DNA of 64,000 bases. Source: an uncultured Pseudomonadota bacterium (GTDB taxonomy: Bacteria > Babelota > Babeliae > Babelales > Vermiphilaceae). This document shows positions 1,914 through 54,946 of the stretch, in pieces. Location: NCBI GenBank assembly GCA_964392765.1, contig CAYMRF010000001.1:3744-67743 (forward strand). Reading direction: 5' to 3'. Under the pieces are notes generated by a model. That model searched no databases, was not told where the DNA came from, and saw only the letters and a list, made by a program, of their open reading frames with translations. Positions within the stretch are counted from its first letter, which is position 1. Each line of letters begins with the position of its first letter. A program made the translations under genes and the position numbers.

Positions 1914-1928
1914 TTGCTGAGGAGTGTT

Positions 1929-2762
1929 ATGGAAAATTTTGATTTTTCTCAACAATTTTATGCACTAACTTCTGTGGGCAAACCTTCTGCAGGCATCTGC
2001 AAACTTTTACAAAAATTTAATTTACCAGAAAATGACATCGATGCGATCGTAACCGCAACTCAAAAAGAGTGGCTGCGAACGCCCGGCAAAGAACGTTGGG
2101 ATGCCCAAGACCCTTATGCCGCTCGCAAGGATGAATTACTGCCATTCTTTAAAGAAGCAGGAGTTGTAGGGGAAGTGAAACCTCAAGCCAAAGAGTTTGA
2201 TTATGCAATCATCATGGGTGCGTTTATGCCTCGAATGCAAGTGCGTATTGAGCATACTAAAAAACTTTGGAATGAAGGATATCGGTTTAAACAGATCGTA
2301 TTATTGGGTGCTGAACGAGCGCTCGTTCCTCAACAAGAATTTATTGAAACCTTTGGCCGCGCTCCTGTTCCTCAAACCGAATATGAAATGATACAATGGG
2401 TTTATGCGCATGCAGATCTTCCTCATGAAATGAAACAGGTAAAAACCACATTCATTAATACCCCAAATACTATTGATGCGAATGGCCAAATAATGCGCGC
2501 TAAAACAGGGGACACCATCAAAGCATGGCTTGCAACCAATCCAAAACCAGGAACATGCTTAATTATTTCCAACCAACCGCAAGCATACTATTATCCTGCA
2601 GTGGCAAGAACATTATTACCTGAAACTTTTAAAGTAGCTCAGACTGCTTGCGCCTTAAATGAAAATGCTCGGATATGCGAAATTCTTGATGCATTAGCGC
2701 GCTGGGTTTATCAAGAAAACGAATTGCTAAAAAAACAATCCAAAACCCATGAAATCAAATAA
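1929..2762 (+). CDS. hypothetical protein, paralog A of a tandem pair (possibly DUF218/YdcF-like fold)
   Basis: ORF 1914..2762. ATG at 1929 follows GAGGAG and is the likelier start. Collinear similarity to the next ORF (EKWLR.P.ERW, DY.I..G, KQIV..G..R, AWLA..PKPG.CL.IS.QP, LDALARW.YQE). Confidence 0.6.
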   Translation: MENFDFSQQFYALTSVGKPSAGICKLLQKFNLPENDIDAIVTATQKEWLRTPGKERWDAQDPYAARKDELLPFFKEAGVVGEVKPQAKEFDYAIIMGAFMPRMQVRIEHTKKLWNEGYRFKQIVLLGAERALVPQQEFIETFGRAPVPQTEYEMIQWVYAHADLPHEMKQVKTTFINTPNTIDANGQIMRAKTGDTIKAWLATNPKPGTCLIISNQPQAYYYPAVARTLLPETFKVAQTACALNENARICEILDALARWVYQENELLKKQSKTHEIK

Positions 2763-3603
2763 ATTTTCAGAATTAATTCTCACGCACGATTTACAACCAA
2801 CGCGGGGACTTAAACAAGTGCTCGCGTTTTTTTCTATCAATCCCCATCAACCCATTGAAAGTATCATCCGAATCACGCAAGAAAAGTGGTTGCGTGGCCC
2901 CATTGAGCGATGGCAGATTGCACAAAAAACGCCCATTACTCCGCAAGTGCACCAATTATTTTCTGAAATTGGCATGATAAGTGCCTTATATCCCACTGCA
3001 AAACACTATGATTATATTCTTCTTTTAGGCAGTGATTATGAGGGAACTCGAGCGCGTATTAATTTTTTACGCATTCTTTTAGCAAATGGCATTCAAACTA
3101 AACAGATTGTGGCAATCGGCAGCGATCGCCCGCTAGATATCAATGAATTGCGATCAAATTCATCCATCGGCACCACTGAAATAGAGATGATTAAAAAATT
3201 ATTGGAAAGCGATGAGTCCTTCGCCCGTTCGGGTCGATGGAGCGCGAAGCGCGAATGGAGACCTCTCCACTCGGCTCCTTCGGATCCTCTATCGAGGCGA
3301 ACGGAACGGGGAAATGTCACTTTCATCGAAGCAAAAGGCAAAACTCTTGCAGATGGAACTTTTAAACGAGCTACCACGGCAGATACTTTTAATGCCTGGC
3401 TTGCAAGCGCTCCAAAACCAGGATCGTGTTTGCTTATTTCCGATCAACCATTTATTGGGTATCAAAATGCGGTTGCTCACTCGTTACTCAAAAATTTCTG
3501 GAATATTACCACAGTCGGCCCCGCTATTGACAATCAAACTACTCTGGAAGATCTTTTAGATACTTTGGCCCGTTGGCTATATCAGGAGACCAATCAAAAA
3601 TAA
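2749..3603 (+). CDS. hypothetical protein, paralog B of the tandem pair, carrying an in-frame GC-rich repeat insertion
   Basis: 284 aa, collinear with paralog A. It has an extra segment SFARSGRWSAKREWRPLHSAPSDPLSRRTERGN, encoded by repeat module A at about 3217..3311. Confidence 0.6.
   Translation: MKSNKFSELILTHDLQPTRGLKQVLAFFSINPHQPIESIIRITQEKWLRGPIERWQIAQKTPITPQVHQLFSEIGMISALYPTAKHYDYILLLGSDYEGTRARINFLRILLANGIQTKQIVAIGSDRPLDINELRSNSSIGTTEIEMIKKLLESDESFARSGRWSAKREWRPLHSAPSDPLSRRTERGNVTFIEAKGKTLADGTFKRATTADTFNAWLASAPKPGSCLLISDQPFIGYQNAVAHSLLKNFWNITTVGPAIDNQTTLEDLLDTLARWLYQETNQK
3217..3311. repeat. GC-rich palindromic repeat, module A, in frame inside a CDS
   Basis: CCGTTCGGGTCGATGGAG-CGCGAAGCGCG-AATGGAGACCTCTCCACTC-GGCTCCTTCGGATCC-TCTATCGAGGCGAACGG. 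The outer arms are mutually complementary and the centre is palindromic. Other copies at about 9533, 11473, 17453 and 20176. Confidence 0.85.
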
Positions 3604-3614
3604 GTGAGTTTGGT

Positions 3615-4478
3615 ATGCAAGCAAAAACTTCGATGCATCTTTTTTTGTTTCTGATTGTTTCTTCAAATTCTTTGAGCGCAATGAGCGAAGCTCGTCAATT
3701 GGCAGAAATTCATGAGTCATCTCACCAGGCATATATTGAAAAATTTATAGATTCGTTAAAAACAGAAAAAGATTTTCAAAAATCGATTTATATTAATGGT
3801 GATTTTCCAGCTCTTCTTGAATTTGCTGCTTATGATAACATCGAAAATGTAAAAAGAATTTTAGCTAAAAGGCCGCCATTAGATAAAATTACCAATTCTG
3901 ATGGAGAAAATATTTTTCATATTTTAGCAAAAAATGGAAATTCAAAATTGATGCGCTGGGTTATTAAACATTGCGTACATGAAAATATAGATATCAGCTC
4001 AGCAATTAATGGTATTGAAAAAAATGATCTAAGAACTCCATTACACGTCGCTGCACGCAATTCCAGAACTGGGTGCTTAAAACTCTTGTTGCACTATGGA
4101 GCCAAAGTAGACTCTCTGAATAATGCAAACAATACCCCTCTTCATTTAGCAGCAGCATCGAGTTTCCGGGGACGGCATAAAAGAGATCACACGGTGGATA
4201 TTCTATGCAGAGCAAACGCAGCTCTCGCAATAAAAAATAAAGAAGATAGAACTCCTCAGGCATGCGCTGAAAAAGAAAAATACAGAACAACAACTGCAAT
4301 TTTACGATATTATTCTTTATGTTCTCAGCTTAAGCCAATTGTACAGGATAAAAAAGAGCCTAATTATCTTCAACGATTACCGCTCGAGCTTTTGCTCATG
4401 GCATGCAGATTTTGCGCAACTACAGAATCTATCGCGCCAAAGCCACCTTCAGAAAATCTACCCGCCTCTTCTCTTTGA
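3615..4478 (+). CDS. secreted ankyrin-repeat protein
   Basis: Start moved to ATG 3615 (MQAKTSMHLFLFLIVSSNSLSA signal peptide), just after the upstream stop at 3603. ANK repeats are visible, e.g. TPLHVAARNSRTGCLKLLLHYGAKVDSLNNANNTPLHLAA. Confidence 0.8.
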   Translation: MQAKTSMHLFLFLIVSSNSLSAMSEARQLAEIHESSHQAYIEKFIDSLKTEKDFQKSIYINGDFPALLEFAAYDNIENVKRILAKRPPLDKITNSDGENIFHILAKNGNSKLMRWVIKHCVHENIDISSAINGIEKNDLRTPLHVAARNSRTGCLKLLLHYGAKVDSLNNANNTPLHLAAASSFRGRHKRDHTVDILCRANAALAIKNKEDRTPQACAEKEKYRTTTAILRYYSLCSQLKPIVQDKKEPNYLQRLPLELLLMACRFCATTESIAPKPPSENLPASSL

Positions 4479-9672: not shown

Positions 9673-12219
9673 ATGGATAAGCAATATAATCATCAAGTTG
9701 CTGAGCAAGAAGCGCAGCAAAAATGGCATAGAGAAAAAACCTACAGCATGGCCAATAATCCTGGCCCGATCTTTAGTATCGACACACCACCTCCTACCGT
9801 TTCAGGAAACTTGCATATCGGGCATATTTTTTCTTATACCCAAACCGATATCATTGCTCGCTATGCGCGCATGAGCGGCAGCAGCGTTTTCTATCCCTTT
9901 GGCTTTGATGATAATGGCTTGCCCACTGAACGCTATGTAGAAAAGAAACTCGATATTCGCGCACACGCAATGTCTCGCTCAGAATTTATTAATGTATGCC
10001 TTAAAGAAACGCATGCGGTTGAAGAACAGTTCCAGCAACTCTGGCAGCGCATGGGCCTCTCTGTAGACTGGGCTCATTGCTATTCAACTATCTCTGAATC
10101 TACTCGAAAAATTTCTCAAGAATCATTCGTTCGCTTGCTGCAAAAAGGATTCGTATATCGCAAAAATGAACCGGCGCTCTTTTGCACCACCTGCCGCACC
10201 TCCGTTGCTCAAGCAGAATTGGATGACATGGAAAAATCATCATTCTTTAATGATGTGATCTTTAAAGATGAAAAGGGCAACGATCTTTTAATTGGCACCA
10301 CGCGCCCTGAATTACTGCCTTCGGTAAACGGACTGCTCTTTATTCCCAATGATCCACGTTATCAACTCCTTGCAGGCACCTTTGCAACGGTACCTCTCTT
10401 TAATCAAAAAGTACCCGTTTTGGCCGATGATAAAGTGCTCATTGATAAAGGAACCGGTTTGGCAATGACCAGTACCTTTGGGGATACTACTGATATTGAA
10501 TGGTTTAAGAAACACAAATTAGAATATCGTCCCATGATTGGCCTTGATGGCAAAATGCTGCCCGCTGCCGGAATTTTAGCAGGGCTTAATGTGCAAGCTG
10601 CCCGCACTAAAGTTATTGAGGAACTCAAAACTGCGGGACTTTTAGTAAATCAAAAGCCAATTACCCACACCGTGAACGTGCATGAACGCTGCAAAAAAGA
10701 GATTGAATATGTGATGATCCCGCAGTGGTTCTTGAATCTTATTGATCATAAAAAAGAGTTTTTGGCACTGGCCGATCGCATTAATTGGTATCCTGGACAT
10801 ATGAAATCCCGCTACATCAATTGGGTGGAAAATATTGGATGGGATTGGTGCCTTTCGCGTCAACGCTTTTATGGCATTCCATTTCCGGTATGGCATTGCA
10901 GCAAATGCAATGAGATCATCCCCGCAGAAATTAAACAACTTCCGGTAGATCCACAAGAAACCAAATATACCGGCAATTGCCCAAAATGCGGTAGCTCCGA
11001 AATCACTCCTGATACTGATGTGATGGACACCTGGAATACGTCATCACTAACTCCGTATTTGTGCTACGCGCTTTTTAATCCGCAAGCGGAATCCGTTTTC
11101 ACTGATAAAAAAGTTGCTGAATTTATTCCGATGAGCATGAGACCTCAAGCGCATGATATCATTCGCACCTGGGCATTTTACACCATCGTAAAAGCATGGA
11201 TGCATGATCATGATCTGCCATGGCATAATATCGTGATCTCAGGCCACGTGCTTGCTGACACTAAAGAAAAGTTATCAAAATCAAAAGACAATGCGCCCAA
11301 TTCTCCGCAAGGATTGCTTGAGCGTTATCCTGCCGATGTGATCCGCTACTGGACATCTTCAGGCGGATTAGGCCAAGATATTGCTTTCTCCGAAGGACAA
11401 TTAAAAATTGGCCAACGCTTGGTAACCAAAATTTGGAACGCATTTAGATTTATTCATGAACACGTTTCCACTCCGTTCGCCTCGATAGAGCGCGAAGCGC
11501 GAGTGGAGAGGTCTCCATTCGGTCCTGCGGACCTCCATCGACCCGAACGGGGAGATGGGCAACCAACAACTCCATTGGGCATCACTAATGAATGGCTCTT
11601 GGATTCTGCAACGCAAACCTTTGCGCGCTATCAAACCTATTTTAATGAAAATGAGTTTGGTCTTGCGCTGGATGTAGTAGAAAAATTCTTCTGGAACAAT
11701 TTCTGCGATAACTATTTAGAATTGATTAAAGATCAACTCTTTAAGCCTGAAAATTATACTGAAGTTGAACTTCGCGCAACGCGATGGACTCTTTACCAAA
11801 CCGGATTGCGCATTTTGCAAATGTATGCGCCCTATTTACCGCACGTTACCGAAAAGTTGTATGAATTGATCTATGCGAAGCACGTTGGTACACCAAGTAT
11901 ACACCAAACTCGCTACAGCGATATTCAACAAGGCTATACCTTTGCAGAAAGTACCAAAGTGATGGATGTTATTATTGCGCTAATTACCCAAGTGCGTCGA
12001 CTCAAAACAGAAAAACAACTTTCATTAAAAGTGCCTCTTGAAAAGCTCACGATCACGGCTGTTGATGAGCATCTATTGCACAAAGTTGAAGCTCACACGC
12101 AATTAATTCGCGGCATCACCCATGCCCAAGAATTGCACTTTAATCCGGTAAAAGAAAAAACTGATTCGCATATTGAGCAATCAGGCGAGCAATGGCTTGC
12201 AACGGTGCACTGTGATTAG
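9673..12219 (+). CDS. valS: valine--tRNA ligase (TPPPTVSG-type N-terminus), carrying an in-frame repeat insertion
   Basis: 848 aa. DTPPPTVSGNLHIGH (HIGH), KLSKSK (KMSKS), a CP1 editing region and an anticodon-binding C-terminus. Module A is inserted at about 11467..11556. Confidence 0.88.
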   Translation: MDKQYNHQVAEQEAQQKWHREKTYSMANNPGPIFSIDTPPPTVSGNLHIGHIFSYTQTDIIARYARMSGSSVFYPFGFDDNGLPTERYVEKKLDIRAHAMSRSEFINVCLKETHAVEEQFQQLWQRMGLSVDWAHCYSTISESTRKISQESFVRLLQKGFVYRKNEPALFCTTCRTSVAQAELDDMEKSSFFNDVIFKDEKGNDLLIGTTRPELLPSVNGLLFIPNDPRYQLLAGTFATVPLFNQKVPVLADDKVLIDKGTGLAMTSTFGDTTDIEWFKKHKLEYRPMIGLDGKMLPAAGILAGLNVQAARTKVIEELKTAGLLVNQKPITHTVNVHERCKKEIEYVMIPQWFLNLIDHKKEFLALADRINWYPGHMKSRYINWVENIGWDWCLSRQRFYGIPFPVWHCSKCNEIIPAEIKQLPVDPQETKYTGNCPKCGSSEITPDTDVMDTWNTSSLTPYLCYALFNPQAESVFTDKKVAEFIPMSMRPQAHDIIRTWAFYTIVKAWMHDHDLPWHNIVISGHVLADTKEKLSKSKDNAPNSPQGLLERYPADVIRYWTSSGGLGQDIAFSEGQLKIGQRLVTKIWNAFRFIHEHVSTPFASIEREARVERSPFGPADLHRPERGDGQPTTPLGITNEWLLDSATQTFARYQTYFNENEFGLALDVVEKFFWNNFCDNYLELIKDQLFKPENYTEVELRATRWTLYQTGLRILQMYAPYLPHVTEKLYELIYAKHVGTPSIHQTRYSDIQQGYTFAESTKVMDVIIALITQVRRLKTEKQLSLKVPLEKLTITAVDEHLLHKVEAHTQLIRGITHAQELHFNPVKEKTDSHIEQSGEQWLATVHCD
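11467..11556. repeat. GC-rich palindromic repeat, module A, in frame inside valS
   Basis: CCGTTCGCCTCGATAGAG-CGCGAAGCGCG-AGTGGAGAGGTCTCCATTC-GGTCCTGCGGACC-TCCATCGACCCGAACGG. The core 11473..11550 is 78 bp, i.e. 26 codons. It is translated as PFASIEREARVERSPFGPADLHRPER. Confidence 0.85.
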
Positions 12220-14789: not shown

Positions 14790-14821
14790 AGAAAATCACT
14801 TTTTTTAATATCAAAACTTTA

Positions 14822-14967
14822 CTGAGCCGCGCGTATGGTTCGACAGGCTCACCACGAGCGGCCTTACAACAGTCTTTCCGCTCGCCCTGACCCTTCGACT
14901 TCGCTCAGGAGTAAACGGCCGCCTGGCCGCCGAAGCCTTGGCGAAGGCTGGCTCGAAGGAAGCGAGC
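14822..14967. repeat. composite GC-rich repeat block (modules B, C, E1)
   Basis: GTATGGTTCGACAGGCTCACCACGAGCGGCC (B), CCTTCGACTTCGCTCAGGA (C) and CCGCCGAAGCCTTGGCGAAGGCTGG (E1). E1 differs by 1 of 25 nt from 17558..17582. Confidence 0.8.
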
Positions 14968-15070
14968 AAAAAAATTTAAGCTTCAAAGAAACTATTTAAT
15001 CTTCCAAACCACCCTACAAGAAATAGAACTAAAAAACTAGGTTATAGCCTTAAAAAGTAATGCTAATTGC

Positions 15071-15121: not shown

Positions 15122-15197
15122 GCGGGAATAGCTCAATTGGTAGAGCGTTGCCTTGCCAAGGCAAAGGTTACGGGTTCGAGTCCCGTTTCCCGCTCCA
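15122..15197 (+). tRNA. tRNA-Gly (anticodon GCC), CCA encoded
   Basis: Manual cloverleaf: acceptor GCGGGAA/TTCCCGC, D arm GCTC..GAGC, anticodon stem TTGCC/GGCAA with loop TTGCCAA, T arm ACGGG-TTCGAGT-CCCGT, discriminator T, then CCA. Confidence 0.93.
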
Positions 15198-15345
15198 GTC
15201 TTCGCCCACAAGGGGCTACGTCTGGCTGCGCCGCTGATAAGGCAGAAACAAAAACGGTTCTAGCAACATGCGAAGACTGTCCGCCGTAGCTTGCCGAGTC
15301 TGAAGACCCGGATAAGCATAGGCTGGACTAGCGGCCCACCATCTC
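15198..15345. repeat. GC-rich structured segment 3' of tRNA-Gly containing repeat module E2
   Basis: Inverted repeat AGTCTTCGC...GCGAAGACT. Then CCGCCGTAGCTTGCCGAGTCTGAAGACCCGGATAAGCATAGGC (15281..15323), which matches the reverse complement of 29385..29427 at 40 of 43 nt. Confidence 0.75.
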
Positions 15346-15489: not shown

Positions 15490-16320
15490 ATGAAATCAAT
15501 AATGGAAGAAGCTTCAACGATATCCAAAGCGATTGAAAATGCCTGGAATCGTGCCGGTCAACCGCAAGAGTTCACCGTAAAAATTCTGGAGTTACCAAAA
15601 ACGAGCTTTTTTGGACTCAAAACTGCAAAATCTGCAAAAATTGCTCTCATTTTCAATGAAGCAACCGTTAAAGTTAAAGAACAACCGCAGCAAAAGCATG
15701 CGCGCCCATTGCCTCAACGTCAACCGCAAGATCGCAGAGATTCAAATCAACGCTCAGAAGAAAGACACGATCGCAGCCAACAAGTGCAGCGCAGACCCTT
15801 ACAACCGCGCGATCAGCAACGCGACCAACAAAGAGATCAGCAACGAGATGCTCAACGCACTGAGCGTTCCCTTGAAAGACGTCCTGAACGGCAAGATCGC
15901 CCAGAAAGAGCTGATAGACCTGAAAGACAAGATAGACCTGATCGCCGCCCACAACAAGGGCCACGCCAACCGTATCGCACTGAAGGCCAAAATCCTGAAG
16001 ACAATCGCCGCTCAGAAGAGCCACGCCGTTTTGAACAACGTCCTGCTCAAGAGCGCGATAACTGGACTCCTGAAATGGTTGAATCTGCTCAAGATTGGAT
16101 CAAAGAAACCTTGGTGCTCATGGGCAAGCCAGACATCAAAGTTACTCCCAACGTTTCTCATAACTATCTAAAAATTTATCTCGATCAACCAGTTATGGAT
16201 GATTTTAAGCAAGAAGAAACCCAACTTAAAAGCTGGGGATCCCTTGCGATGGAAGCCGTGCGTGAAAAGGCCCAAAAGCCATTGCGCAGCTTACGCATCA
16301 TCTTGGAAAGCAAGAAATAA
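15490..16320 (+). CDS. Jag/KhpB-like RNA-binding protein with a long low-complexity R/Q/D/E/P insert
   Basis: Jag_N-like N-terminus (ISKAIENAWNRAG...FTVKILELPKTSFFGLKTAKSAKI). Located immediately upstream of mnmE, the classic jag-mnmE synteny. Central RDQQRDQQRDQQRD and RPERQDRPERADRPERQDRPDR repeats. Confidence 0.65.
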   Translation: MKSIMEEASTISKAIENAWNRAGQPQEFTVKILELPKTSFFGLKTAKSAKIALIFNEATVKVKEQPQQKHARPLPQRQPQDRRDSNQRSEERHDRSQQVQRRPLQPRDQQRDQQRDQQRDAQRTERSLERRPERQDRPERADRPERQDRPDRRPQQGPRQPYRTEGQNPEDNRRSEEPRRFEQRPAQERDNWTPEMVESAQDWIKETLVLMGKPDIKVTPNVSHNYLKIYLDQPVMDDFKQEETQLKSWGSLAMEAVREKAQKPLRSLRIILESKK

Positions 16321-16343: not shown

Positions 16344-17960
16344 ATGTTTCATTCAGTTGATGAACAAACTATTATTGCACAATGTACGCCTCGCGGAAGC
16401 GGGGCGATCGCTTTACTGCGCATCTCAGGCATCAACGCAATAGAAATAGTAAATTCTATTGCAAAATTAGCTTCACAAAAATCATTACTCGATGCAGATA
16501 CGCATACGATTCACTATGGCAGCGTGGTAGACTCTCAAGGTGTCACCGTTGATAACGTGATGTTTTTACTCATGAAAGCGCCAAAAACATTCACGGGCCA
16601 AGAGACGGTAGAGATCACGTGCCACAACAATCAATTCATTGTTGAACAGATTATTGCGCTGGCCATTGCCAATGGCGCACGCTTGGCCCAAGAAGGGGAA
16701 TTTACTAAGCGTGCCGTGCTCAATGGCAAAATAGATTTAGTGCAAGCTGAGGCGATAAATGAACTCATTCATGCGCAAACACAACTGGCGCTCAAACAAT
16801 CACTCTCTCAATTAAAAGGTTCTCTCACTCAATGGCTTGCCACCATTGAACATGCACTCATTAAAGCACTCGCACTTTCTGAAGCCAGCTTTGAATTTCT
16901 TGATGAAGAGATGGAATTTGCACCACAAATTAGTAGCATGATTACAGAAATTAAAACTACCATTGGCAGCATTAAAAAAACTTATAATCAACAACAGCAA
17001 ATTCGCCAAGGGGTTCGCGTTGCCATTATTGGCTCCGTAAACGCGGGCAAATCTTCTTTATTTAATGCGCTACTCAATCAAGAGCGCGCTATCGTTACCG
17101 CTATTGCCGGCACCACTCGCGATGCGATTGAAGCAGGCGTGTATAAAAATGGCAACTTCTGGACTTTGGTAGACACTGCCGGATTGCGCCAGACTGATGA
17201 TGTTATTGAGCAGGAAGGGATTAGAAGATCTTTTGAAGAAGCACAGAAGGCGGACATTATTATTTTGGCTTTCGATTCTTCGCGTGAAATCACGTGTGAG
17301 GAATCGGAAGTTTATCAACAGATTGCACAGCAGTATCCGAATAAAATTATTACGGTTTATACGAAATGTGATACTACATTTCTCGACTCTTCCTCACTAA
17401 GTTCGGATTCGCTCGAAACGAACGGGGAAGAATTTGAGAAAATAAAAGACCCCGTTCGGGTCGATGGAGGTCTGGAAGACCGAATGGAGACCTCTCCACT
17501 CACCCCTAAAGGGGTTGTATCGAGGCGAACGGAAGAGCGGGCACACATCCTGCCTGTCCGCCGTAGCCTTGGCGAAGGCTGGAAGAGCAACCAAGGGTTG
17601 CGTATCGAAGGACGTGCCAACATTGCAGATAATTTTACTAAGCACGAGCCAATCAACCTCTCCAGCAAAACAAAAACCAACATCAGCGCTCTCGAATCCG
17701 CAATTGAACAAAAAATTGCCACCCTATTTGCCGGCATCGAATCTCCATTCTTATTAAACCAACGCCAATTCAATCTCTTGCTCGCGCTTGAAAAAAAGCT
17801 TGATGAGATTCACAATATGCTCAGTCAAAAACAAGTTGCCTATGAACTATTATCAATCCATCTTAATGATGCTATTGCACATTTAGCTGAACTTTCAGGA
17901 AAATCAATCAGTGAGGCTGGTATGGATATGGTGTTTAGGGAATTTTGTATTGGGAAGTAA
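16344..17960 (+). CDS. mnmE: tRNA modification GTPase MnmE, carrying a composite in-frame repeat insertion of about 78 aa
   Basis: G1 GSVNAGKSSLFNAL, G3 DTAGLR, G4 TKCD, C-terminal FCIGK. 538 aa against the usual roughly 450-460 aa; the excess maps to 17378..17614. Confidence 0.9.
   Translation: MFHSVDEQTIIAQCTPRGSGAIALLRISGINAIEIVNSIAKLASQKSLLDADTHTIHYGSVVDSQGVTVDNVMFLLMKAPKTFTGQETVEITCHNNQFIVEQIIALAIANGARLAQEGEFTKRAVLNGKIDLVQAEAINELIHAQTQLALKQSLSQLKGSLTQWLATIEHALIKALALSEASFEFLDEEMEFAPQISSMITEIKTTIGSIKKTYNQQQQIRQGVRVAIIGSVNAGKSSLFNALLNQERAIVTAIAGTTRDAIEAGVYKNGNFWTLVDTAGLRQTDDVIEQEGIRRSFEEAQKADIIILAFDSSREITCEESEVYQQIAQQYPNKIITVYTKCDTTFLDSSSLSSDSLETNGEEFEKIKDPVRVDGGLEDRMETSPLTPKGVVSRRTEERAHILPVRRSLGEGWKSNQGLRIEGRANIADNFTKHEPINLSSKTKTNISALESAIEQKIATLFAGIESPFLLNQRQFNLLLALEKKLDEIHNMLSQKQVAYELLSIHLNDAIAHLAELSGKSISEAGMDMVFREFCIGK
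17378..17614. repeat. three concatenated GC-rich repeat modules (D + A + E1) in frame inside mnmE
   Basis: D: ATTTCTCGACT...GCTCGAAACGAACGG (17378..17425). A: CCGTTCGGGTCGATGGAG...TGGAGACCTCTCCA...TATCGAGGCGAACGG (17453..17532). E1: CCGCCGTAGCCTTGGCGAAGGCTGG (17558..17582) plus a tail ending about 17614. Confidence 0.85.
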
Positions 17961-17965
17961 AAAAA

Positions 17966-18871
17966 ATGAAGCGATTATTATTACTGAGCTTAATTGCATC
18001 GAATGTTAAGGGCATGGATCATGGAGACATCGATCCTTTAGGCCGCGCAGTTTATCTTATTACCATGAGTGGCTGGGATAAAGAAAGAAAAAAAGAATTA
18101 TTTTATCGCGAAACAGAAAGACGTTTAACCAATAGGATGAACCTGGATCTTCCTATAAAAGACACTGTTCCTTTAGAGTATTTTATAAAAAATAAAGATT
18201 TAACAATGGTTAAAAGGTTGCTGGAAGCAGGCGCCACTCCCTCTAGTAAATTTTTAGAAACAGCTATAGTATTCAAGAACGATGAATCAGCAGAAGAACT
18301 ACTTCGTTTCAAAGCAGATCCTAACGAGATGCTTAAAAACACAACTCCCTTACATTGCCTTTGTAGCAATATAAATGATTCAACTAAGTCTTCACAGATA
18401 CTTCGCCTTGCTCAATTACTTTTATCTCATGGAGCTTGCCCCAATATCTACAGTAAAGGCGAGGGATTCGGCGCTATAACACCTCTTCATGAACTTTTGT
18501 TTCATTCTATTCCGTCAAACGATGAAATAGTAGAGTTTGGTTATAATAGAGATTCGATTATCCTACTACGTAAGAAGCTCGTTCATATGCTTATTTTTCG
18601 TGGAGGTGCCCACTTGTTAACTGTCAAAGATATGCGTAAGACACCATTAGAAGTGGTGAAATTGGTGGAAATTTTCGAAGAAGAACAAGACCCAGATCTC
18701 ATTGCATTAGCTGCGCTTGCCGAAAAGTTATACGTTTCACGAATGGTGCAACTCTGCTGGATCAAAGATCGAATAAAAGATGGGGCAATCCGAGGCTTGC
18801 CACCAGAACCTAATTTGATCCAAACGTTACCCCGCTCATTGCTCAAGTTTATTGCTGATAGAACGGTATAA
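17966..18871 (+). CDS. secreted ankyrin-repeat protein
   Basis: ATG at 17966 gives the signal peptide MKRLLLLSLIASNVKG. ANK-like repeats (TPLHCLCSN...LLLSHGACPN, ITPLHELLF). Confidence 0.7.
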   Translation: MKRLLLLSLIASNVKGMDHGDIDPLGRAVYLITMSGWDKERKKELFYRETERRLTNRMNLDLPIKDTVPLEYFIKNKDLTMVKRLLEAGATPSSKFLETAIVFKNDESAEELLRFKADPNEMLKNTTPLHCLCSNINDSTKSSQILRLAQLLLSHGACPNIYSKGEGFGAITPLHELLFHSIPSNDEIVEFGYNRDSIILLRKKLVHMLIFRGGAHLLTVKDMRKTPLEVVKLVEIFEEEQDPDLIALAALAEKLYVSRMVQLCWIKDRIKDGAIRGLPPEPNLIQTLPRSLLKFIADRTV

Positions 18872-20110: not shown

Positions 20111-20175
20111 CTTCTATAATTTTTATTCAGAACAAACGCACTTTAAAGTCTTTTAAATACGCAAAAAAATTCTAT

Positions 20176-20366
20176 CCGTTCGCCTCGATGGAACCCTGTA
20201 AAGGGTGAATGGAGAGGTTTTTTATATGAAATCAACAACGTTTTAAGGACTTCTCCATTCGGGCTTCGCACTCTGGTTCGATGCGGCGTGGCCTTACTCA
20301 CCACAGGCCTTCGACGCGGCTCCCGACCATCCTGAGCGAATGCAATGAGTCGAAGGAAGCGAACGG
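20176..20366. repeat. composite GC-rich repeat block: module A split by AT-rich filler, then B/C-like modules
   Basis: CCGTTCGCCTCGATGGAACCCTGTAAAGGGTGAATGGAGAGG, then 32 nt of AT-rich sequence, then TCTCCATTCGGG...GGTTCGATGCGG...CTCACCACAGG...TCCTGAGCGAATGCAATGAGTCGAAGGAAGCGAACGG. Confidence 0.8.
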
Positions 20367-27400: not shown

Positions 27401-29176
27401 ATGACTAATTCCTTTAAGGAACTACCTTTACATCCTCAAATTTTAACCACTCTTGATGGTCTTGGGTTCACTACCCCGACTGAAATTCAAGGGAAAGCTA
27501 TCCCTATGCTTTTGGGCTCAAACAGAGTCGATTTCTGGGGACAAGCGCAAACCGGTACGGGTAAAACCCTTGCTTTTGGTATTCCTTTAATTCAGGGTAT
27601 CAATCCGCAAGATAAACGCCTTCAAGCGCTTATCGTTGCTCCAACCAGAGAGCTCGTGGTTCAGATTATGCAAAGCTTACGCCCTATTGCGCAACCAATG
27701 GGAATCACCGTTGATGCAATCTACGGCGGCGCTTCTATGAGAGATCAGATTAACTCCCTCAAAAAAGGTCTTCACATTGTAGTGGGAACCCCTGGGCGTA
27801 TTAATGATCACTTGAATCGCAAAACCCTTTCTCTTGCAAACTTAAAGACTTTAGTGCTTGATGAAGCAGATATCATGCTTGATATGGGCTTTAAAGAAGA
27901 GATGGATGAGATTTTAGCGGCATCTCCTGATGAACGCCAAATTTGGCTTTTCTCTGCAACTATTAAGCCTGGTATTAATCAGATTATGCGCGAGCATATG
28001 AAAGATACGGTGAGTGTTACTGCAAGCAAGCAACAAATTGGCGCTTCAAACACCAAGCAATACTTCTCTATGGTTCCTCACAGAAACCGATTTGAGGCAT
28101 TGTGCCGATTTATTGATAGCAATCCATCATTTTATGGATTTATCTTCTGCCAAACAAAAATTTTAACTGCTGAATTAGCAGAAAAATTAGCGGCAGCAGG
28201 CTATCCCGCAAATGCACTTCATGGCGATATGAGCCAAGGATTGCGTAATGCAGTAATTAAGAAATTTAAAAATAAAGATTTTAACATCTTAGTAGCAACC
28301 GATGTTGCGGCACGTGGAATTGACGTTTCTGATCTTACCCACGTGATTAACTATTCAATTCCTAACGATCATGAAAGCTATGTTCACCGTATTGGTAGAA
28401 CCGGCCGCGCAGGAAAAGAAGGTATTGCAATCAGTTTTATTGGTGGCAAAAATGAAGTGCGTCATATCAGAATGCTTGAGCGCAAATTCAAATTCACCAT
28501 TAACCCACTTGATGTGCCAACCGCTCAAGATATTAAGAAAGTATACATGCAAAAAGCATGCGACTATCTTGAAACTCTTGCGCAAAAGACCAGCACCGTG
28601 GCTCCTGAAGTCGAAGCAGCAGTTCGTTGCTTTGATGCAGCAGAATTGACCAATATCGTAATTGCAACGGTTGCAGAAAAGTTCTTCCCTGCAACAAGAA
28701 AAGATGATTTCAACTTCGCAAACACCAGCACCCAATCATTTGATAAAAATGATGACAGCCAAGTTACTGATGATGGATTACAAGAATTAATGATTCACCT
28801 TGGTACTGATGATGATATTACCCGTGAAGATGTGGCAGATTTCCTTTCCAAAGAAGGCGGAATCGATACTGACAGCTTAGAAAAACTCAAAGTAATCAAA
28901 CGCCGCACCTTTATTAAGCTTCCTTCTGAAATGGCTGAAGCGTTATTGCAGAAGCTTAAAGGTAAGAGCATTAACGGTCAAAAAACACGCATCACGCTTG
29001 CTCCTGTTTCTGATGACGATTGGGGCTCATCTGGCCCACGTCGCGGCGGCAGAAGAGGCGGCGATAGAGATCGCGGTGGCGATCGTGGCGGCCGTAGAGG
29101 CAGAGCTCGTGGCGATCGCGGTGACCGTGGCGATAGAGGCGGATCACGCGGTGGCGAACGTCGTAAACGCTACTAA
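27401..29176 (+). CDS. DEAD-box ATP-dependent RNA helicase (DeaD/CsdA-like) with an RGG/RGD-rich C-terminal tail
   Basis: Motifs Q (TPTEIQ), I (AQTGTGKT), Ia (PTRELV), II (DEAD), III (SAT) and VI (HRIGRTGRAG). DbpA-like RNA-binding region, and tail RGGRRGGDRDRGGDRGGRRGRARGDRGDRGDRGG. Confidence 0.92.
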   Translation: MTNSFKELPLHPQILTTLDGLGFTTPTEIQGKAIPMLLGSNRVDFWGQAQTGTGKTLAFGIPLIQGINPQDKRLQALIVAPTRELVVQIMQSLRPIAQPMGITVDAIYGGASMRDQINSLKKGLHIVVGTPGRINDHLNRKTLSLANLKTLVLDEADIMLDMGFKEEMDEILAASPDERQIWLFSATIKPGINQIMREHMKDTVSVTASKQQIGASNTKQYFSMVPHRNRFEALCRFIDSNPSFYGFIFCQTKILTAELAEKLAAAGYPANALHGDMSQGLRNAVIKKFKNKDFNILVATDVAARGIDVSDLTHVINYSIPNDHESYVHRIGRTGRAGKEGIAISFIGGKNEVRHIRMLERKFKFTINPLDVPTAQDIKKVYMQKACDYLETLAQKTSTVAPEVEAAVRCFDAAELTNIVIATVAEKFFPATRKDDFNFANTSTQSFDKNDDSQVTDDGLQELMIHLGTDDDITREDVADFLSKEGGIDTDSLEKLKVIKRRTFIKLPSEMAEALLQKLKGKSINGQKTRITLAPVSDDDWGSSGPRRGGRRGGDRDRGGDRGGRRGRARGDRGDRGDRGGSRGGERRKRY

Positions 29177-44342: not shown

Positions 44343-44429
44343 AATTTCATCCCTCATTAATATTTACTCGGTACTTTTTCAATGGTAATAGTCTAACGTA
44401 TATCTTTTGTTTTTTAGAAGGTTTCAGTA

Positions 44430-45104
44430 ATGATTTTTTATGTAATTTCACTTTTGTTTCTTATTCCCTATGCTTGCGCAATGGAGAATAGTGAAGAAGA
44501 AAATCAAAATGATTCCAAGCTGCAAAAAACCCAAATACTAACCAGGAGCTTCATGGAGGGATTGGAAGGATTTTGCGCGAATCTTTTGCACTCCGCATCT
44601 CATGCGGGCAATTTATTTGAAGCGCTCGATTCCTCAGATTTTGCCGCCATTGAAAGATTTGCTACGCCACAAACAGTAAATACTATTGATGCTCACGGTT
44701 GCACCCCGCTGCTTAAAGCAACTGCCCGCTACGAGCATAATAAAACTGAAACCCTAAATATTTTACAAATACTTTTAAGAAAATCTGCAAACTTAAATCA
44801 GACCGGGTTTCTAAACAACTTAAAACTTCTTCCATTGGATGTAGCCACTGGATACGCCCTGACTCATAATGATTTTACGGTTGTTCGATTGTTTCTAGGA
44901 GCCGGCGCTAACCCAAAGCTTATTACTGACCCAGATGAGCCTGAAGAAGAACTTCGCTGCGCATATGATATGGCAAAGGATCTTGTGAGGCTTCCTAATT
45001 TATGCCCTTGTTCGCGGGGGAGCTGTCCTGGTAATACCCAATCTACCGCAACAAGACTTCTTGAAATTTTTGATGCACATCTCGCAAATAAAACTAACGA
45101 GTAA
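44430..45104 (+). CDS. secreted ankyrin-repeat protein (short member of a local trio)
   Basis: Signal MIFYVISLLFLIPYACA. ANK-like module (HGCTPLLKA...ILQILLRKSANLNQ). C-terminal CPCSRGSC...LLEIFDAHLA. Confidence 0.7.
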   Translation: MIFYVISLLFLIPYACAMENSEEENQNDSKLQKTQILTRSFMEGLEGFCANLLHSASHAGNLFEALDSSDFAAIERFATPQTVNTIDAHGCTPLLKATARYEHNKTETLNILQILLRKSANLNQTGFLNNLKLLPLDVATGYALTHNDFTVVRLFLGAGANPKLITDPDEPEEELRCAYDMAKDLVRLPNLCPCSRGSCPGNTQSTATRLLEIFDAHLANKTNE

Positions 45105-45216: not shown

Positions 45217-46362
45217 ATGTATTGTTTACTTTTAGCTATTTTTTTATCCTGTTCGTTAAACACCACTTACTTGTATGCAATGGAAGATTCCAATAGAAAC
45301 AGGCAAGAGCAGCCATCTACGGCTCGTAAAACAAGAAAAATAGTATTATTAGTCAACCGTGCTCTACCTCATTCAAATCAGGCACTTTATAATCAAAAAG
45401 AGCACCTTGCTGTTGAGGCTGCAGAAAGTTGTGATTTGATTGAATTACAAAAATATGTAACTCCCGCCAATGTAAACATAATAAAGAGTCAATCAGGATT
45501 AAGTTTGCTCTCTCTTTCATTGAGAAGACAGACAGAAGAAGAACATTTTGATACATCTGCTCCTGATTACTTAATAGCGCAAGGTGCATCAATCCACGAA
45601 AAAACAGAAGGGAAAGAGCAATGCTCGCCTCTTGTCTACTCAGTGGGCGCGGCAATTTTGGGCAATAACTTTTCCCCTCTGGAATATTTACTCTCAAAGA
45701 ACGGTAACCCATTTACATTAGATCAAAACGCACTGGGATCAAGCGCCGCTGGCCTCACGGTTCAACTTAAAAATTCTCCGTTGCCTACCGATGCAGTCGC
45801 TAGAAAAAAACGTGTTCTTGCGATGTTTTGTGAGCGAGTTAAAAATTTACCCCAAGCGCTTGAAACCTATGATCTTTTAACTATTCAGAGATTTTTAAAT
45901 CCTGAAACCGTAAACAGGATTGATGAAGAAGGACTTACTCCTTTGCTCAGAGTAGTGTTTAATTATACTGCCAGCACAAGGCAAATAACCTATCAAATAC
46001 TAGATCTGTTGCTACGAACAGGCGCTAACCCCAATCAAGTAGGAGCAATACAGGGAATCAAAAAAACTCCTTTGTTTTTTACCACAGAAATTGCGCTGCT
46101 AACTGGCGATACGCTTGCTATTCCGCCGCTATTAAAACATGGCGCAAATCCAAAACTTGAAGCAGATCCAGATACTATGCAACCTCCTTTTAATTCAGCG
46201 TATGCAATGGCACGTTATTATAGCACGCAACCAAGCATGCGTAGTGTAGACAGGCTCCCGCCCGAAGATGTTCTTCTTAGAAGAACTGCCGCAAATCTTG
46301 TTGCACTTTTTGATGTACATGAAGCAAGAAAAATCTCAACTAAAAGCCTCAATTTAGAATAA
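45217..46362 (+). CDS. secreted ankyrin-repeat protein (two-module member)
   Basis: Signal MYCLLLAIFLSCSLNTTYLYA. Two modules, each similar to the 44430 protein. C-terminal LVALFDVHEA. Confidence 0.7.
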   Translation: MYCLLLAIFLSCSLNTTYLYAMEDSNRNRQEQPSTARKTRKIVLLVNRALPHSNQALYNQKEHLAVEAAESCDLIELQKYVTPANVNIIKSQSGLSLLSLSLRRQTEEEHFDTSAPDYLIAQGASIHEKTEGKEQCSPLVYSVGAAILGNNFSPLEYLLSKNGNPFTLDQNALGSSAAGLTVQLKNSPLPTDAVARKKRVLAMFCERVKNLPQALETYDLLTIQRFLNPETVNRIDEEGLTPLLRVVFNYTASTRQITYQILDLLLRTGANPNQVGAIQGIKKTPLFFTTEIALLTGDTLAIPPLLKHGANPKLEADPDTMQPPFNSAYAMARYYSTQPSMRSVDRLPPEDVLLRRTAANLVALFDVHEARKISTKSLNLE

Positions 46363-46390: not shown

Positions 46391-47542
46391 ATGTCACGAA
46401 TTATTTTGTCAGTCTATTTACTTGTTTCATTAAGCAGCGTTAGCTTACGGGCAATGGTTGATCCTCGTGAAGATCAAGAGCAGCCAAAACAAACCCCAGG
46501 GCCAAGAGGACAAATAATATTTTACTCCTCAATGGAGGAGATGAAAGCTATATATGCAAATCTTTTTAGGCCAGAAGGCGCAACTCCTGAAGCTACAGAT
46601 GCTGCATCTACATGCAATCTTGAGAAATTAAAACAGCATGTTGATTCAAATAATGTGAACGTTGCCGATCGCGAAAAACACGCAAGTTTACTTTCTCTCG
46701 CGCTAGCAAAGCAAGCACAAGAAAAGAAGTTTGATCCAGCAGCTCCAGACTATTTAATCAGCCTAAGAGCTTTTACTGACAGGCGAAGCACCACCGCAGA
46801 ACTAGCTTCTCCTCTCATGCAAGCGGCATCATTGGCGATCTTTCAGAGAAGATTCGCGCCCGTTGAATATTTGCTTGGAAAAAAAGCTAATCCATTTTTA
46901 CCAAATCAAATCCATACCGGTTGGAGCGCCGCTGAAGCCACCTTTCAATGCAGAGAGAACCAAGATCCTTCTGGAGAAATATATGCAAACATAGCACGCC
47001 TGATGGCCATGTTTGCCCCACACGCACGCACTATTCATGATGCGCTAGAAACTTATGATATCCTTACCATTAAAAAATTTGCTGACCCGCAAAGCATTAA
47101 TACTCCGGATGCGCAAGGTTGCACACCACTATTAAAAATAATGGGACGCTATTGCCCTCATCTGAACATCAAGCCTGAAGTGACTACCATTCTAAAATTG
47201 CTTTTTCTGCGCAAGGCTAATCCTAACCAAGTGGGAATTTGGAATGGTTTCAAAGCTGCTCCATTAGATTTAGCAACGTACGACGCCGTGCAATCTAGTG
47301 ATACCTCATTAGTTTCACTCTTTTTGGAGGCTGGAGCAAATCCAAAACTAGACACCAATCCTGAAAACAAAGAAGAAGTAGCTCGCTGCTCATATGATAT
47401 AGCCACGCATTTTAAATCGGCACCAAATGAGTGCCCATGCGGAAAAGAAAGCTGCGAAGCTGGTTACCAAGCCAAAAGAGCTACCGCGTCAAAATTATTA
47501 GAGCTTTTTGATGCACATATAGCACAACAAGCTTCTAAGTAA
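46391..47542 (+). CDS. secreted ankyrin-repeat protein (two-module member)
   Basis: Signal MSRIILSVYLLVSLSSVSLRA. Same architecture as 45217. C-terminal CPCGKESC...LLELFDAHIA. Confidence 0.7.
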   Translation: MSRIILSVYLLVSLSSVSLRAMVDPREDQEQPKQTPGPRGQIIFYSSMEEMKAIYANLFRPEGATPEATDAASTCNLEKLKQHVDSNNVNVADREKHASLLSLALAKQAQEKKFDPAAPDYLISLRAFTDRRSTTAELASPLMQAASLAIFQRRFAPVEYLLGKKANPFLPNQIHTGWSAAEATFQCRENQDPSGEIYANIARLMAMFAPHARTIHDALETYDILTIKKFADPQSINTPDAQGCTPLLKIMGRYCPHLNIKPEVTTILKLLFLRKANPNQVGIWNGFKAAPLDLATYDAVQSSDTSLVSLFLEAGANPKLDTNPENKEEVARCSYDIATHFKSAPNECPCGKESCEAGYQAKRATASKLLELFDAHIAQQASK

Positions 47543-51440: not shown

Positions 51441-52778
51441 ATGGTACGCTTTCAGCACAATTCTATTTTTTTGCGTTTTTTTATTTTTGCTTTTTTGATA
51501 TTTAACCCAGCCATTTCAAAAGAGAAAAAACCTTGGACGTTTATCGTTTACGCAGCGGCTGACAACAATCTGCGCGACTATGCATCGCGCAACATTAAGC
51601 AAATGTCTACTATCGGCTCAAATCAAAACGTGAACATCTGCGTTCACCTTGATATTCGAATGCCCGGCAGCAAAAAAATGACGCGCCGCTATTACGTTGA
51701 AAAAAATAATCCAGTGCAAATCGACATGCCGCAAGAAAAAACCCCTATGAATAGCGGCGATCCTCAAACGCTTATCTCCGCATGCCGTTGGGCAATCACT
51801 AATTATCCAGCAGAACGATATATGCTTGTTCTCTGGAATCATGGAACTGGTATCATAGATCCTTATGGAAGAAGACAAATTGACACTAAAATGCTCTACA
51901 ATTTTAATGCAGAAGCAAATGTGTTTGAGCTTGATCGCACTATTGGATTTCTTGATTTAATAGAAGCGCTCAATGACCCTAAAGGAATTTGCTGGGATGA
52001 TAGCACGGGCGACTATCTCACCAATCAAAAGTTAGAAGCGGCGCTCGGGGAAATTACCAACTCACTTTTAGGCGGCAAAAAATTTGAGATCATCGCCTTC
52101 GATGCCTGCCTTATGGCAATGCTTGAAGTTGCAGAAATCACCAAGCGATACTCAAACATTCAAATCGCATCTGAAGAAGTAGAGCCAGGCCCAGGCTGGA
52201 GATATGATGAAGCTTTATCGCCATTCCTGAAGGGCGCCCCTGACGCGCATAGTTTGGCATCTCACATTGTAGATGCATTTGCAACCGCCTACCGCCCGCA
52301 AGGAAATCATCCCGGGTTTGTTGATTACACTCAGTCAGCGCTTGATCTTACCCTTATTCCTCAACTTGAAGCTAATGTTGACCAATTGGGCAATGCCCTG
52401 GCGGCGGCACTAGCCACCGATCAGGCACAAACGTATAGAAATATTATTGGTCAATGCAAGCGCAAAGGAAATTGCACCCACTTTAATGAGCCAACGTATA
52501 TTGATCTGCTACATTTTAATAAAAATCTTTTAAAATCAGTTCGCGATACTTTTCCAAATCCTAATTTACTTGCTTCTGAAATCATACGAATACTGCAAGA
52601 AGGGCAAGCGATTATTAGAAAAGTGGTTATCAGAAATGTGTGCGGATCGAACCTACCTAATGCCTCGGGCATATCAATTTTCTTCCCGGACCGAAAAATT
52701 CACCCATCTTATAAGAAATCTAATTTTGCCAAAAACAATTGGACAAAGTTCTTAACCGCATTTGTTTTAAATCCATAA
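51441..52778 (+). CDS. clostripain-family (C11) cysteine peptidase, secreted
   Basis: WTFIVYAAADNNL, catalytic His context LVLWNHGTG, and catalytic Cys context IAFDACLMA. Confidence 0.8.
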   Translation: MVRFQHNSIFLRFFIFAFLIFNPAISKEKKPWTFIVYAAADNNLRDYASRNIKQMSTIGSNQNVNICVHLDIRMPGSKKMTRRYYVEKNNPVQIDMPQEKTPMNSGDPQTLISACRWAITNYPAERYMLVLWNHGTGIIDPYGRRQIDTKMLYNFNAEANVFELDRTIGFLDLIEALNDPKGICWDDSTGDYLTNQKLEAALGEITNSLLGGKKFEIIAFDACLMAMLEVAEITKRYSNIQIASEEVEPGPGWRYDEALSPFLKGAPDAHSLASHIVDAFATAYRPQGNHPGFVDYTQSALDLTLIPQLEANVDQLGNALAAALATDQAQTYRNIIGQCKRKGNCTHFNEPTYIDLLHFNKNLLKSVRDTFPNPNLLASEIIRILQEGQAIIRKVVIRNVCGSNLPNASGISIFFPDRKIHPSYKKSNFAKNNWTKFLTAFVLNP

Positions 52779-53408: not shown

Positions 53409-53507
53409 ATAATCACGCAACATTCGATGCCCTTATTCATTCAGCAAATAGAACGGCTAGGCATCCAAACATGGCTTACAAACGGCCTTGCCGAGCGCAA
53501 CAAAAAG

Positions 53508-53881: not shown

Positions 53882-54946
53882 GTGAGACTCACTGAAGTTA
53901 TTGACGAACTCGTTGAAGAACGCGGTCTAGACAGAGACATTTTAAGCGGCATAGTCTGCGAAGGAATGCTTGCTGCCTATACCAAAAAGTATCCGGAATT
54001 CACCCTTAAGGTAGATTTTGACAAAAAAACCAACGAAATGGTTATTTTGGTTGAAAAAGAGGTGGTTAATACCGTAGAAGACGAGGAATTTGAGATTAGC
54101 CTTCGCAAAGCAAAAGCTCTCGACGCTAAAGCAGAACTAGAGTCCAAGCTCTTTGTTCCCTTTGATGGAAAAATTGGGCGAATTGAGATCTTGCGCGCAA
54201 AGCAGGTGATTGCCAATAGCATTAGAAGAATTGAAGCTTCTGCTGTTTATGAAGAGTTTAAAGATAAAGAAGGCACCATTGTCCACGGCACTATTCATAA
54301 GTGTGAGCGTGGCGGTGCGGCCGTAAAAATCGGCGATACCTTGGCCTTCTTGCCTAAGTCTCTTATGATTCCTGGAGAAAAATGTGCCGCAGGATATACC
54401 GTGCGCGCATTGCTTAAGGAGGTTTTGCCTGAGCCTCGAAATGATAATCAGCTTGTGCTTGATAGGGGTTCAGAGTTGTTCTTACAGCGTCTTTTTGAGC
54501 TCGAGATTCCTGAGGTCTTTGAAAAATTAGTTGAAATTAAGAAAATTGTAAGAACTCCTGGCTACAAATCTAAGGTGGCTGTGGTTTCCCATGATAAAAA
54601 TATCGACCCTGTTGGAACCTGTGTAGGAATTGGTGGCGCTCGTATTAAGCCAATCCTTAAGGAGTTGGGCGGCGAGAAGATTGATGTGATTGTTTGGAGT
54701 GAGTCTCCAGAAATTCTGATTCGCGACTCTTTAAAGCCTGCGCAAATCAATAGAGTTGAGATAGTTGACGATCAAAATTGCAACGTATGGCTCAATGAAG
54801 ACCAGCGCTCTTTGGCGATCGGAAAAATGGGGCAAAATATTTCATTGGCATCTCGTTTGAGTGGCTATAACATTCACTTAATTAAGAGTGAAAGCCCTGC
54901 TCAAAATATCGATGAGATCGCTATGGATATGGAAGAATTTGATTGA
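53882..54946 (+). CDS. nusA: transcription termination/antitermination factor NusA
   Basis: GTG start with a GAAGG RBS. N-terminal domain, S1 (GTIVHGTIHKCERGGAAVKIGD...AFLP) and two KH domains (GIGGARIKPI, AIGKMGQNI). Confidence 0.92.
   Translation: MRLTEVIDELVEERGLDRDILSGIVCEGMLAAYTKKYPEFTLKVDFDKKTNEMVILVEKEVVNTVEDEEFEISLRKAKALDAKAELESKLFVPFDGKIGRIEILRAKQVIANSIRRIEASAVYEEFKDKEGTIVHGTIHKCERGGAAVKIGDTLAFLPKSLMIPGEKCAAGYTVRALLKEVLPEPRNDNQLVLDRGSELFLQRLFELEIPEVFEKLVEIKKIVRTPGYKSKVAVVSHDKNIDPVGTCVGIGGARIKPILKELGGEKIDVIVWSESPEILIRDSLKPAQINRVEIVDDQNCNVWLNEDQRSLAIGKMGQNISLASRLSGYNIHLIKSESPAQNIDEIAMDMEEFD

Follow-up and report, generated by a model that had tools for sequence, protein, structure and literature searches.

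The question raised by this locus is how an MnmE protein comes to be 538 amino acids (aa) long, whereas relatives without extra sequence at the same place have 453-461 aa. The gene, mnmE (16344..17960, forward strand), which encodes an essential GTPase of tRNA modification, lies in a stretch of 64,000 nucleotides (nt) from an uncultured Babeliales bacterium (contig CAYMRF010000001.1), which is called the window throughout. A first-pass annotation of the letters had reported that the excess forms one contiguous, GC-rich, in-frame block after the G4 motif TKCD and before LSSKT, and the open reading frame (ORF), the lengths of homologs and the break in alignments to PDB structures all bear this out. 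We consider it very likely that the block is selfish DNA, namely a nested mosaic of short non-autonomous palindromic repeats (families D, A, F and E) resembling repetitive extragenic palindromes (REPs) and their inverted doublets (REPINs), or the Rickettsia palindromic elements (RPEs).

The identity of the host gene is supported at several levels. The protein carries the Pfam domains TrmE_N (PF10396), MMR_HSR1 (PF01926) and MnmE_helical (PF12631), all well over cut-off, in the three-domain architecture of MnmE with a helical domain split by a Ras-like G domain, and its AlphaFold2 (AF2) model matches the crystal and cryo-EM MnmE structures 1xzq, 3gei and 9hip with probability 1.0. Motifs G1 to G5 and the C-terminal C(I/V)GK are present (GSVNAGKSS, GTTRD, DTAG, TKCD, SSK and FCIGK) and fall in columns that are invariant or nearly so among homologs. 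The G4 motif (aa 340-343, 17361..17372) stands directly 5' of the insert, with K341 and D343 (nearly) invariant; G4 reads TKxD in this Babeliales subclade and the canonical NKxD in more distant homologs of the same search. On the 3' side, LSSKT (17658..17672) covers strand beta-6 and the G5 region, with residues 437-440 modeled as a beta-strand and a predicted local distance difference test (pLDDT) score above 85 from residue 430 on. Between G4 and G5 (SSK) the insert forms one block from 17378 to ~17618, adding ~80 codons, so that the segment from the G4 strand to G5 measures 113 residues against 28-36 in short forms (MAFFT, 120 best homologs). PDB MnmE alignments stop at query residue 345 and restart at 437, and the GC content is 0.60 over 17450-17600 compared to 0.40 for the whole window. 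The gene order jag-mnmE-ankyrin genes is syntenic with relatives, and the source names attached to some homologs (Candidatus Babeliales, Candidatus Dependentiae) assign the organism to the Dependentiae/Babeliales.

The first-pass annotation had divided the block into three consecutive modules, D, A and E1. All three are indeed matched elsewhere in the window, but the picture of three clean thirds does not hold, as at least four families are involved, nested and partly deleted, and each portion of the block has repeat counterparts either in the rest of the window or in relatives. The block opens with the left arm of a D element (ATTTCTCGACTC..CGCTCGAAACGAACGG; 17378..17425, forward strand), in which two stretches, 17378-17389 and 17409-17424, match the reverse complement of 9588-9623 and 29543-29567 exactly and collinearly; the matched sites belong to intergenic half-D copies on the reverse strand at 9587-9623 and 29539-29567. 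D arms are also present in four other genomes. The earlier D module was a true repeat match that fell short of a whole element: comparison with the complete D of relatives identifies it as the left arm of a ~150-nt palindrome whose right arm is absent in this genome, and the AT-rich spacer between D-left and A (17426..17451), which had been overlooked, corresponds to a portion of the AT-rich middle that a complete D has in two relatives (L002 and L003). In the mnmE genes of those two, D is 148-151 nt long with both arms, laid out as ATTTCTCGACTC..CGCTCGAAACGAACGG, ~65 AT-rich nt and CCGTTCGTTTCGAGCGAGC..GAGTCGAGAAAT, and folds into one long hairpin (DNA fold z -5.2). [quoted passage not shown]

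After the spacer comes a complete A element (17452..17534, forward strand) and then the right arm of an F-type palindrome (17542..17618, forward strand), which begins with CACACATCCTGCC at 17542-17554, ends with GCGTATCGAAGGACGTGCC at 17600-17618 and encloses E1 as well as a small hairpin at 17587-17601. Elsewhere in the window F is not found again; both of its conserved ends recur in the mnmE of another relative (L006), which carries the F left arm as well. The E1 unit (17552..17582, forward strand) consists of a conserved head, CTGTCCGCCGTAGC, and a palindrome after it, and is REP-like in having GTAG at 17563 and then AGCCTTGGCGAAGGCT. It is 94% identical to 14921-14951 (E 2e-7), so that the match of the earlier E1 module stands, whereas its status as a separate third is lost to its position inside the F arm. 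The intergenic copy belongs to a composite at 14880..14960 (forward strand) in which a G1 module (CCCTTCGACTTCGCTCAGGA) precedes E1, and 14820-14969 as a whole is a 150-nt composite of repeat modules. The E1 head also recurs at 15277-15290. A 61-nt inverted pair at 15278-15338 / 29370-29430 (84% complementary) is another GC-rich repeat, starting with an E-type head (GTCCGCCGTAGC), and one of its copies sits just 3' of tRNA-Gly(GCC) at 15122-15197. Finally, A and D share the heptamer CCGTTCG/CGAACGG, which A carries at its outer ends and the D arms at their inner ends, a hint that both families may be recognized or joined at a common site.

The A element is the best defined of these repeats. 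It is 83 nt long (nhmmer 91 bits) and folds as DNA into a cloverleaf (-20.8 kcal/mol, z -3.7) with a four-way junction: its outer stem (CCGTTCG..TCGAT / ATCGA..CGAACGG) counts 7+5 bp, and the further arms are a central stem and a pair of side hairpins that vary. Within the window, 17450-17501 has 94% complementarity to 11501-11552 and 88% identity with 3224-3272, and the central 20-mer GAATGGAGACCTCTCCACTC occurs three times in the 64 kb where none would be expected. Eight full copies were aligned, of which the window supplied three, the relative L001 one and metagenome contigs (L125-L128) four. Their core is invariant, and both side hairpins vary in sequence with their pairing kept: 97% of cells are paired, two-sided changes occur in 6 pairs and 16 cells, none of 500 shuffles performs as well and slid controls give at most 1. 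A is moreover an inverted dimer of a 44-nt unit that is also found singly, with half-A standing alone at 9533-9578, at 20174-20218 (intergenic, reverse strand) and in L069 and L033, the singlet and inverted-doublet arrangement known from REPs. A tRNA-like origin of the cloverleaf was considered and rejected, as ARAGORN and Rfam call only the genuine tRNA-Gly at 15122-15197.

Copies of A are not confined to one kind of place. The modules had been described as intergenic, and this is correct for half-A, half-D and E1, but the other two full copies of A in the window lie inside genes. The second complete A (3224..3306, forward strand) sits in frame within ORF 2749..3603, where it coincides with a gap and an unalignable stretch relative to the tandem paralog 1914..2762; these paralogs share 32% identity, have no Pfam domain and overlap over 14 nt, and only the second contains A. 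The third (11471..11551, reverse strand) is placed in reverse and in frame inside valS (9673..12219, aa ~600-630), adding 25 aa after residue ~599 of a ValRS protein of which 115 of 119 orthologs lack the insert, including P0122 at 84% identity. ValRS proteins of other Babeliales have different repeat-derived inserts after residues 468-479, of SYGGQA, VRQAHHERL and ARRSLGE types. Between genes, a half-A (9533-9578) stands head-to-head with a half-D (9587-9623), and the same adjacency of D-left and half-A is found, again in intergenic DNA, in L033 at 2819-2904.

Beyond the window, A occupies one identical site in the MnmA gene of two different organisms (L125, 96-177; L128, 259-342), in L126 provides a metallophosphatase with its C-terminal tail and is intergenic in L127, L101 and L107; the MnmA copies are partly read in different frames, and MnmA is another tRNA U34-modifying enzyme. 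A is thus read in differing frames and both orientations, and its peptides differ among the window copies: PVRVDGG..METSPLTPKG..SRRTE in mnmE, ARSGRWSAKREWRPLHS.. in ORF 2749 and PFASIEREARVERSPFG.. (reverse strand) in valS, with no conserved element-encoded peptide across the three host genes. All six internal A insertions keep the host frame. The presence of A in several genes, frames and orientations, and between genes, indicates that it is not special to mnmE. A genome scan with the 18-mer CCGTTCGSSTCGATGGAG, a pattern that proved too short, returned 118 loci, of which 111 are fortuitous matches in genomes of high GC (median 0.64). Six loci of low GC, in three metagenome-assembled genomes, carry A or A-like elements, and one further low-GC locus (L020) matches without an A-like extension. 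A scan of metagenome contigs with a long gapped A pattern gave four loci, which suffices for covariation and is not a census, and scans of viral contigs and plasmids gave no match.

The loop itself has been filled in different ways in different relatives, as a comparison of the loop DNA of five relatives' mnmE loci with the window makes clear. In L002 (P0004) and L003 (P0010) the G4-G5 loop holds a complete D. In L001 (P0003) it holds D-left, A and D-right, with A nested in the D centre, and in the window (P0001) D-left and A are followed by F-right/E1 in place of D-right. The loop of L006 (P0008) is a complete F with both arms, and that of L005 (P0007) contains a short REP-like stretch only; P0007 has the highest local identity to the window MnmE, at 82% over the part upstream of the insert. 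Among the 120 relatives, 35 have at least 8 extra aa at the G4-G5 site, and the only other internal insertion site in MnmE (after residue 63, in the N-terminal domain) is used by four (P0038, P0050, P0043 and P0047), with 17-40 extra residues. Several peptide families can be recognized in these loops, namely D-derived (FLDS..SLETNG / PFVSSEHLCESRN), A-derived (VRVDG..ETSPL or, in reverse, SGEVSIR) and E-derived (SYGGQA / RRSLGEGW) ones, as well as SFDT..TQDV / HILS..RVSKD, LRQAQDE / ARGELVEPFE and SSGLLRMN. Inserts are patchy on a neighbor-joining tree of the MnmE core, and sister taxa are often unlike in the length and family of the insert, so that gains, losses and replacements must be frequent.

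The first-pass annotation had reported the insert for the window gene, and a homologous insert shared by close and distant orthologs was to count against it. The same MnmE loop is in fact colonized by repeats in many relatives and not only here. The condition on orthologs is touched only formally: close relatives do share D (P0003, P0004, P0010) and A (P0003) at the site, but what they share are the same repeats, and the close relatives P0005 and P0007 and all distant orthologs are without D or A, with many relatives holding unrelated repeats in the loop.

Core and insert evolve differently. Against four relatives the MnmE core gives a ratio of nonsynonymous to synonymous change (dN/dS) of 0.06-0.11 with the proportion of synonymous differences (pS) saturated at 0.68-0.75. 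To judge from the sequence, mnmE is a functional gene with its core under strong purifying selection, in line with the earlier opinion that a gene with its frame kept and CIGK intact probably works, an opinion also sustained by the full set of G motifs and by the confident AF2 fold outside the insert. Between the window and L001, the insert gives a pS of 0.29 and a proportion of nonsynonymous differences (pN) of 0.30 (dN/dS ~1), which indicates no protein-level constraint in the insert. For the D and A arms identity is nonetheless 81-100% in comparisons of genomes that agree at 46-52% of their third codon positions. Such identity, with synonymous sites saturated, points to recent arrival, homogenization with other copies or nucleic-acid constraint, and all three options fit an active repeat family over ordinary coding sequence.

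In the AF2 model (80-sequence alignment, mean pLDDT 80) residues 353-423 score below 50 and have no secondary structure, the strand leading into G4 (335-340) and the one before G5 (437-440) are confident and the flanking G-domain strands reach ~90 or more, in keeping with the surface loop of the G domain that the first-pass annotation had put up for testing. The insert is thus predicted to be a disordered, floppy surface loop that replaces the short connection from G4 to beta-6. This position corresponds to helix alpha-4 in Ras-like GTPases, on a face away from the switch regions that drive MnmE G-domain dimerization.

Could the segment instead be a lineage-specific functional part of MnmE, for example a regulatory or partner-binding loop, that merely resembles repeats? 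The frequent expansion of the loop (35 of 120 relatives) and the presence of D at nearly the same position in several of them would be expected of such a segment, and disordered loops can have function. We regard it as improbable all the same, considering that the inserts of relatives come from unrelated families and differ between sister taxa, that the same DNA is found between genes and in unrelated genes in other frames and the opposite orientation, that its dN/dS is ~1 against that of the core and that no structure is predicted for it.

An assembly artefact, with repeats mis-joined into mnmE in the metagenome assembly, is a still smaller worry. Short GC-rich repeats are classic assembly traps and the window MnmE protein is known from a single contig, but a mis-join would have had to leave 241 nt free of stops with the frame kept and restored downstream, and only 22% of composition-matched shuffles of 17378-17618 have any open frame. 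All three intragenic A copies in the window keep the frame as well, and the same kind of insert is found at the same site in independent assemblies of other samples, with an identical protein from two runs (L003 and L004). As for the stop-free ORFs on the opposite strand and in other frames that had been attributed to the block, they exist as quoted, but only two of the six frames, that of mnmE and one antisense, are open across the whole of it.

There is an equally slight chance that the block is an intervening sequence, intron-like at the RNA level or an intein, whose removal restores an MnmE of normal length. It is strongly structured as RNA (-96.8 kcal/mol, z -3.8) and the A cloverleaf is conserved and covarying. 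Against this, Rfam finds no family in the insert, neither at the gathering threshold nor at E up to 1, and hence no intron or ribozyme, Pfam gives only the MnmE and GTPase domains, no intein splice-junction residues were seen by eye in the translation and ~80 aa is under mini-intein size. Removal would also make frame and stop freedom needless, yet the six internal A insertions are all in frame, and the valS copy is oppositely oriented. Lastly, that mnmE is a decaying pseudogene and the insert a symptom deserves next to no credence, for although Dependentiae genomes are reduced and gene decay often goes together with invasion by repeats, the frame of 538 aa is unbroken with G1-G5 and CIGK conserved, the core dN/dS against four relatives is low and the AF2 fold is confident.

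If the insert is a mosaic of selfish repeats, the most economical history, given the loop contents of the window, L001-L003 and L006, runs from D to A within D to the replacement of D-right. A D palindrome of ~150 nt would have inserted first into the MnmE loop, the A cloverleaf, a REPIN-like inverted dimer, would then have entered the D centre, and in the lineage of the window the right arm of D would have been replaced by part of an F/E element. Selection would have kept only in-frame, stop-free versions, as selection on the host gene best explains the survival of such versions. The block would now be transcribed and translated as an unstructured, hydrophilic loop with MnmE still working, and what keeps the elements similar at the DNA level could be mobility, whether recent or ongoing, or else conversion among copies or a constraint of structure. 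REPINs are mobilized by REP-associated tyrosine transposases (RAYTs), and a putative enzyme of this kind, belonging to the IS200/IS605 type of insertion sequence (IS), probably moved the elements described here through single-stranded hairpins.

Several observations weigh against this reading. No direct repeat that could be a target-site duplication stands beside D in L001-L003 or the window, nor beside the A copies, and no transposase (RAYT or other) was found among the ~30 window ORFs scanned with Pfam; mobility is therefore deduced from distribution alone. Within the insert A, D and F are without GTAG or CGTC, and E1 alone is tagged as classical REPs are. Intrastrand templated repair can yield covariation in perfect hairpins without selection. 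D also occurs at nearly one position in clades that the neighbor-joining tree splits (P0010 vs P0001, P0003 and P0004), a pattern that calls for insertion more than once, for many losses, for recombination among lineages or for an error in the tree. The source assembly has no independent replicate.

The selfish-repeat reading has consequences that extend past this gene. It would add the phylum Dependentiae, protist parasites known mostly by metagenomes, to Rickettsia and a handful of REP-rich bacteria as hosts of selfish DNA inside protein-coding genes. For annotation, proteins are lengthened by repeat-derived peptides (SYGGQA, RRSLGEGW, VRVDG..ETSPL and PFVSSEHLCESRN among them), which also give rise to spurious ORFs and to false similarities between proteins. 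For protein evolution, a single GTPase loop that was filled repeatedly and independently serves as a natural experiment, asking which MnmE sites tolerate 20-120 extra residues. The A cloverleaf with its covarying hairpins and the CCGTTCG heptamer offer handles toward the mobilizing enzyme. A broader idea is that Babeliales host a whole system of structured modular palindromes (cloverleaf/REPIN-like A, D with terminal inverted repeats, F and GTAG-tagged E, the heptamer CCGTTCG being common to A and D) that remain 81-100% identical among species with saturated synonymous sites, preferentially land in and beside each other and recolonize permissive loops of essential genes. We put this forward tentatively, as a possibility that leans somewhat to the doubtful side. 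Were it true, the G4-G5 loop of MnmE would be a landing pad in roughly one third of the relatives examined, mobility would be ongoing, possibly with exchange among Dependentiae in a common protist host, and the system would be an undescribed counterpart of the RPE system of Rickettsia with a cloverleaf as recognition structure.

Other features of the window can be described more briefly. Upstream of mnmE, the Jag homolog (jag/khpB-like, 15490-16320) contains a low-complexity linker of ~120 aa in which R, Q, D, E and P abound (RPERQDRPE-type repeats), and the GC-rich DNA of this region produces long ORFs that overlap, both in a different frame and on the other strand. Ankyrin genes are confirmed by Pfam at 3573..4478 and 17945..18871. 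A DEAD-box/DbpA helicase (27401..29176) has a C-terminal tail made of an RGG/GDRGG-like repeat, for which imperfect direct repeats of ~30 nt at 29008-29170 (GC 0.66) code. Two large, putative M16 (insulinase-type) peptidase genes (41544-44357 and 47574-50201) flank ORFs 44430..45104, 45217..46362 and 46391..47542, which share the DNA repeat families D6 and D11. At 53365-53551, between genes and upstream of nusA (53882..54946), TTATCCAC-type (DnaA-box-like) motifs form two inverted arrays of 44 nt that are 93% complementary and 99 nt apart. They could be a replication origin or a DnaA-titrating site, although there is no adjacent dnaA; ORF 51441..52778 is a clostripain-family peptidase.

How do these repeats compare to systems that are already known? 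In-frame palindromic repeats are the hallmark of the Rickettsia palindromic elements RPE-1 to RPE-10 (Ogata et al., 2000, 2002; PMC10969869). Both are short palindromes (~100-150 nt) of obligate intracellular bacteria that occur between genes and in frame in unrelated housekeeping genes, including tRNA-related enzymes, at positions tolerated by the protein fold; A is found in frame in mnmE, valS, ORF 2749..3603 and, in other genomes, MnmA, besides its intergenic copies. The bacterium studied here is a member of another phylum, the Dependentiae, so that homology would not be expected, and the likeness is a functional one, with the RPEs compared by description only. A also differs in having no conserved peptide, being read in several frames and both orientations, and in its four-way cloverleaf with two covarying hairpins, and here several families are nested at one site.

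REPs are short imperfect palindromes tagged with GTAG or CGTC at one end, and intragenic REP dimers or clusters encoding 20-82 aa have been described in Opitutus, Thauera, Rickettsia and others, with Dependentiae not among the phyla listed for GTAG/CGTC REPs (Di Nocera et al., 2013; PMC3733652). As in these and in REPINs, GTAG precedes a palindrome in E1, the 44-nt unit of A is found singly as well as in an inverted dimer and target-site duplications are absent; unlike them, A, D and F are untagged, the two hairpins of A are unlike each other and no RAYT is found among the ~30 ORFs scanned in the window. Bacterial MITEs, among them ERIC, Nezha and QMITE1, can also make in-frame fusions (PMC10969869). 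D resembles them in its terminal inverted repeats around a ~65-nt AT-rich centre, its length of ~150 nt and its lack of coding capacity, but it has no target-site duplication or identified related autonomous IS element, and its inner arms share CCGTTCG with A. In the literature searched, including the two main Dependentiae genome papers, we found no description of such repeats for this phylum. Overall, this is the same phenomenon as that of the Rickettsia palindromic elements and intragenic REPs, and what differs is the phylum, the sequence families, the absence of a conserved peptide frame, the cloverleaf of A and the nesting of multiple families at one site, which is colonized in many relatives.

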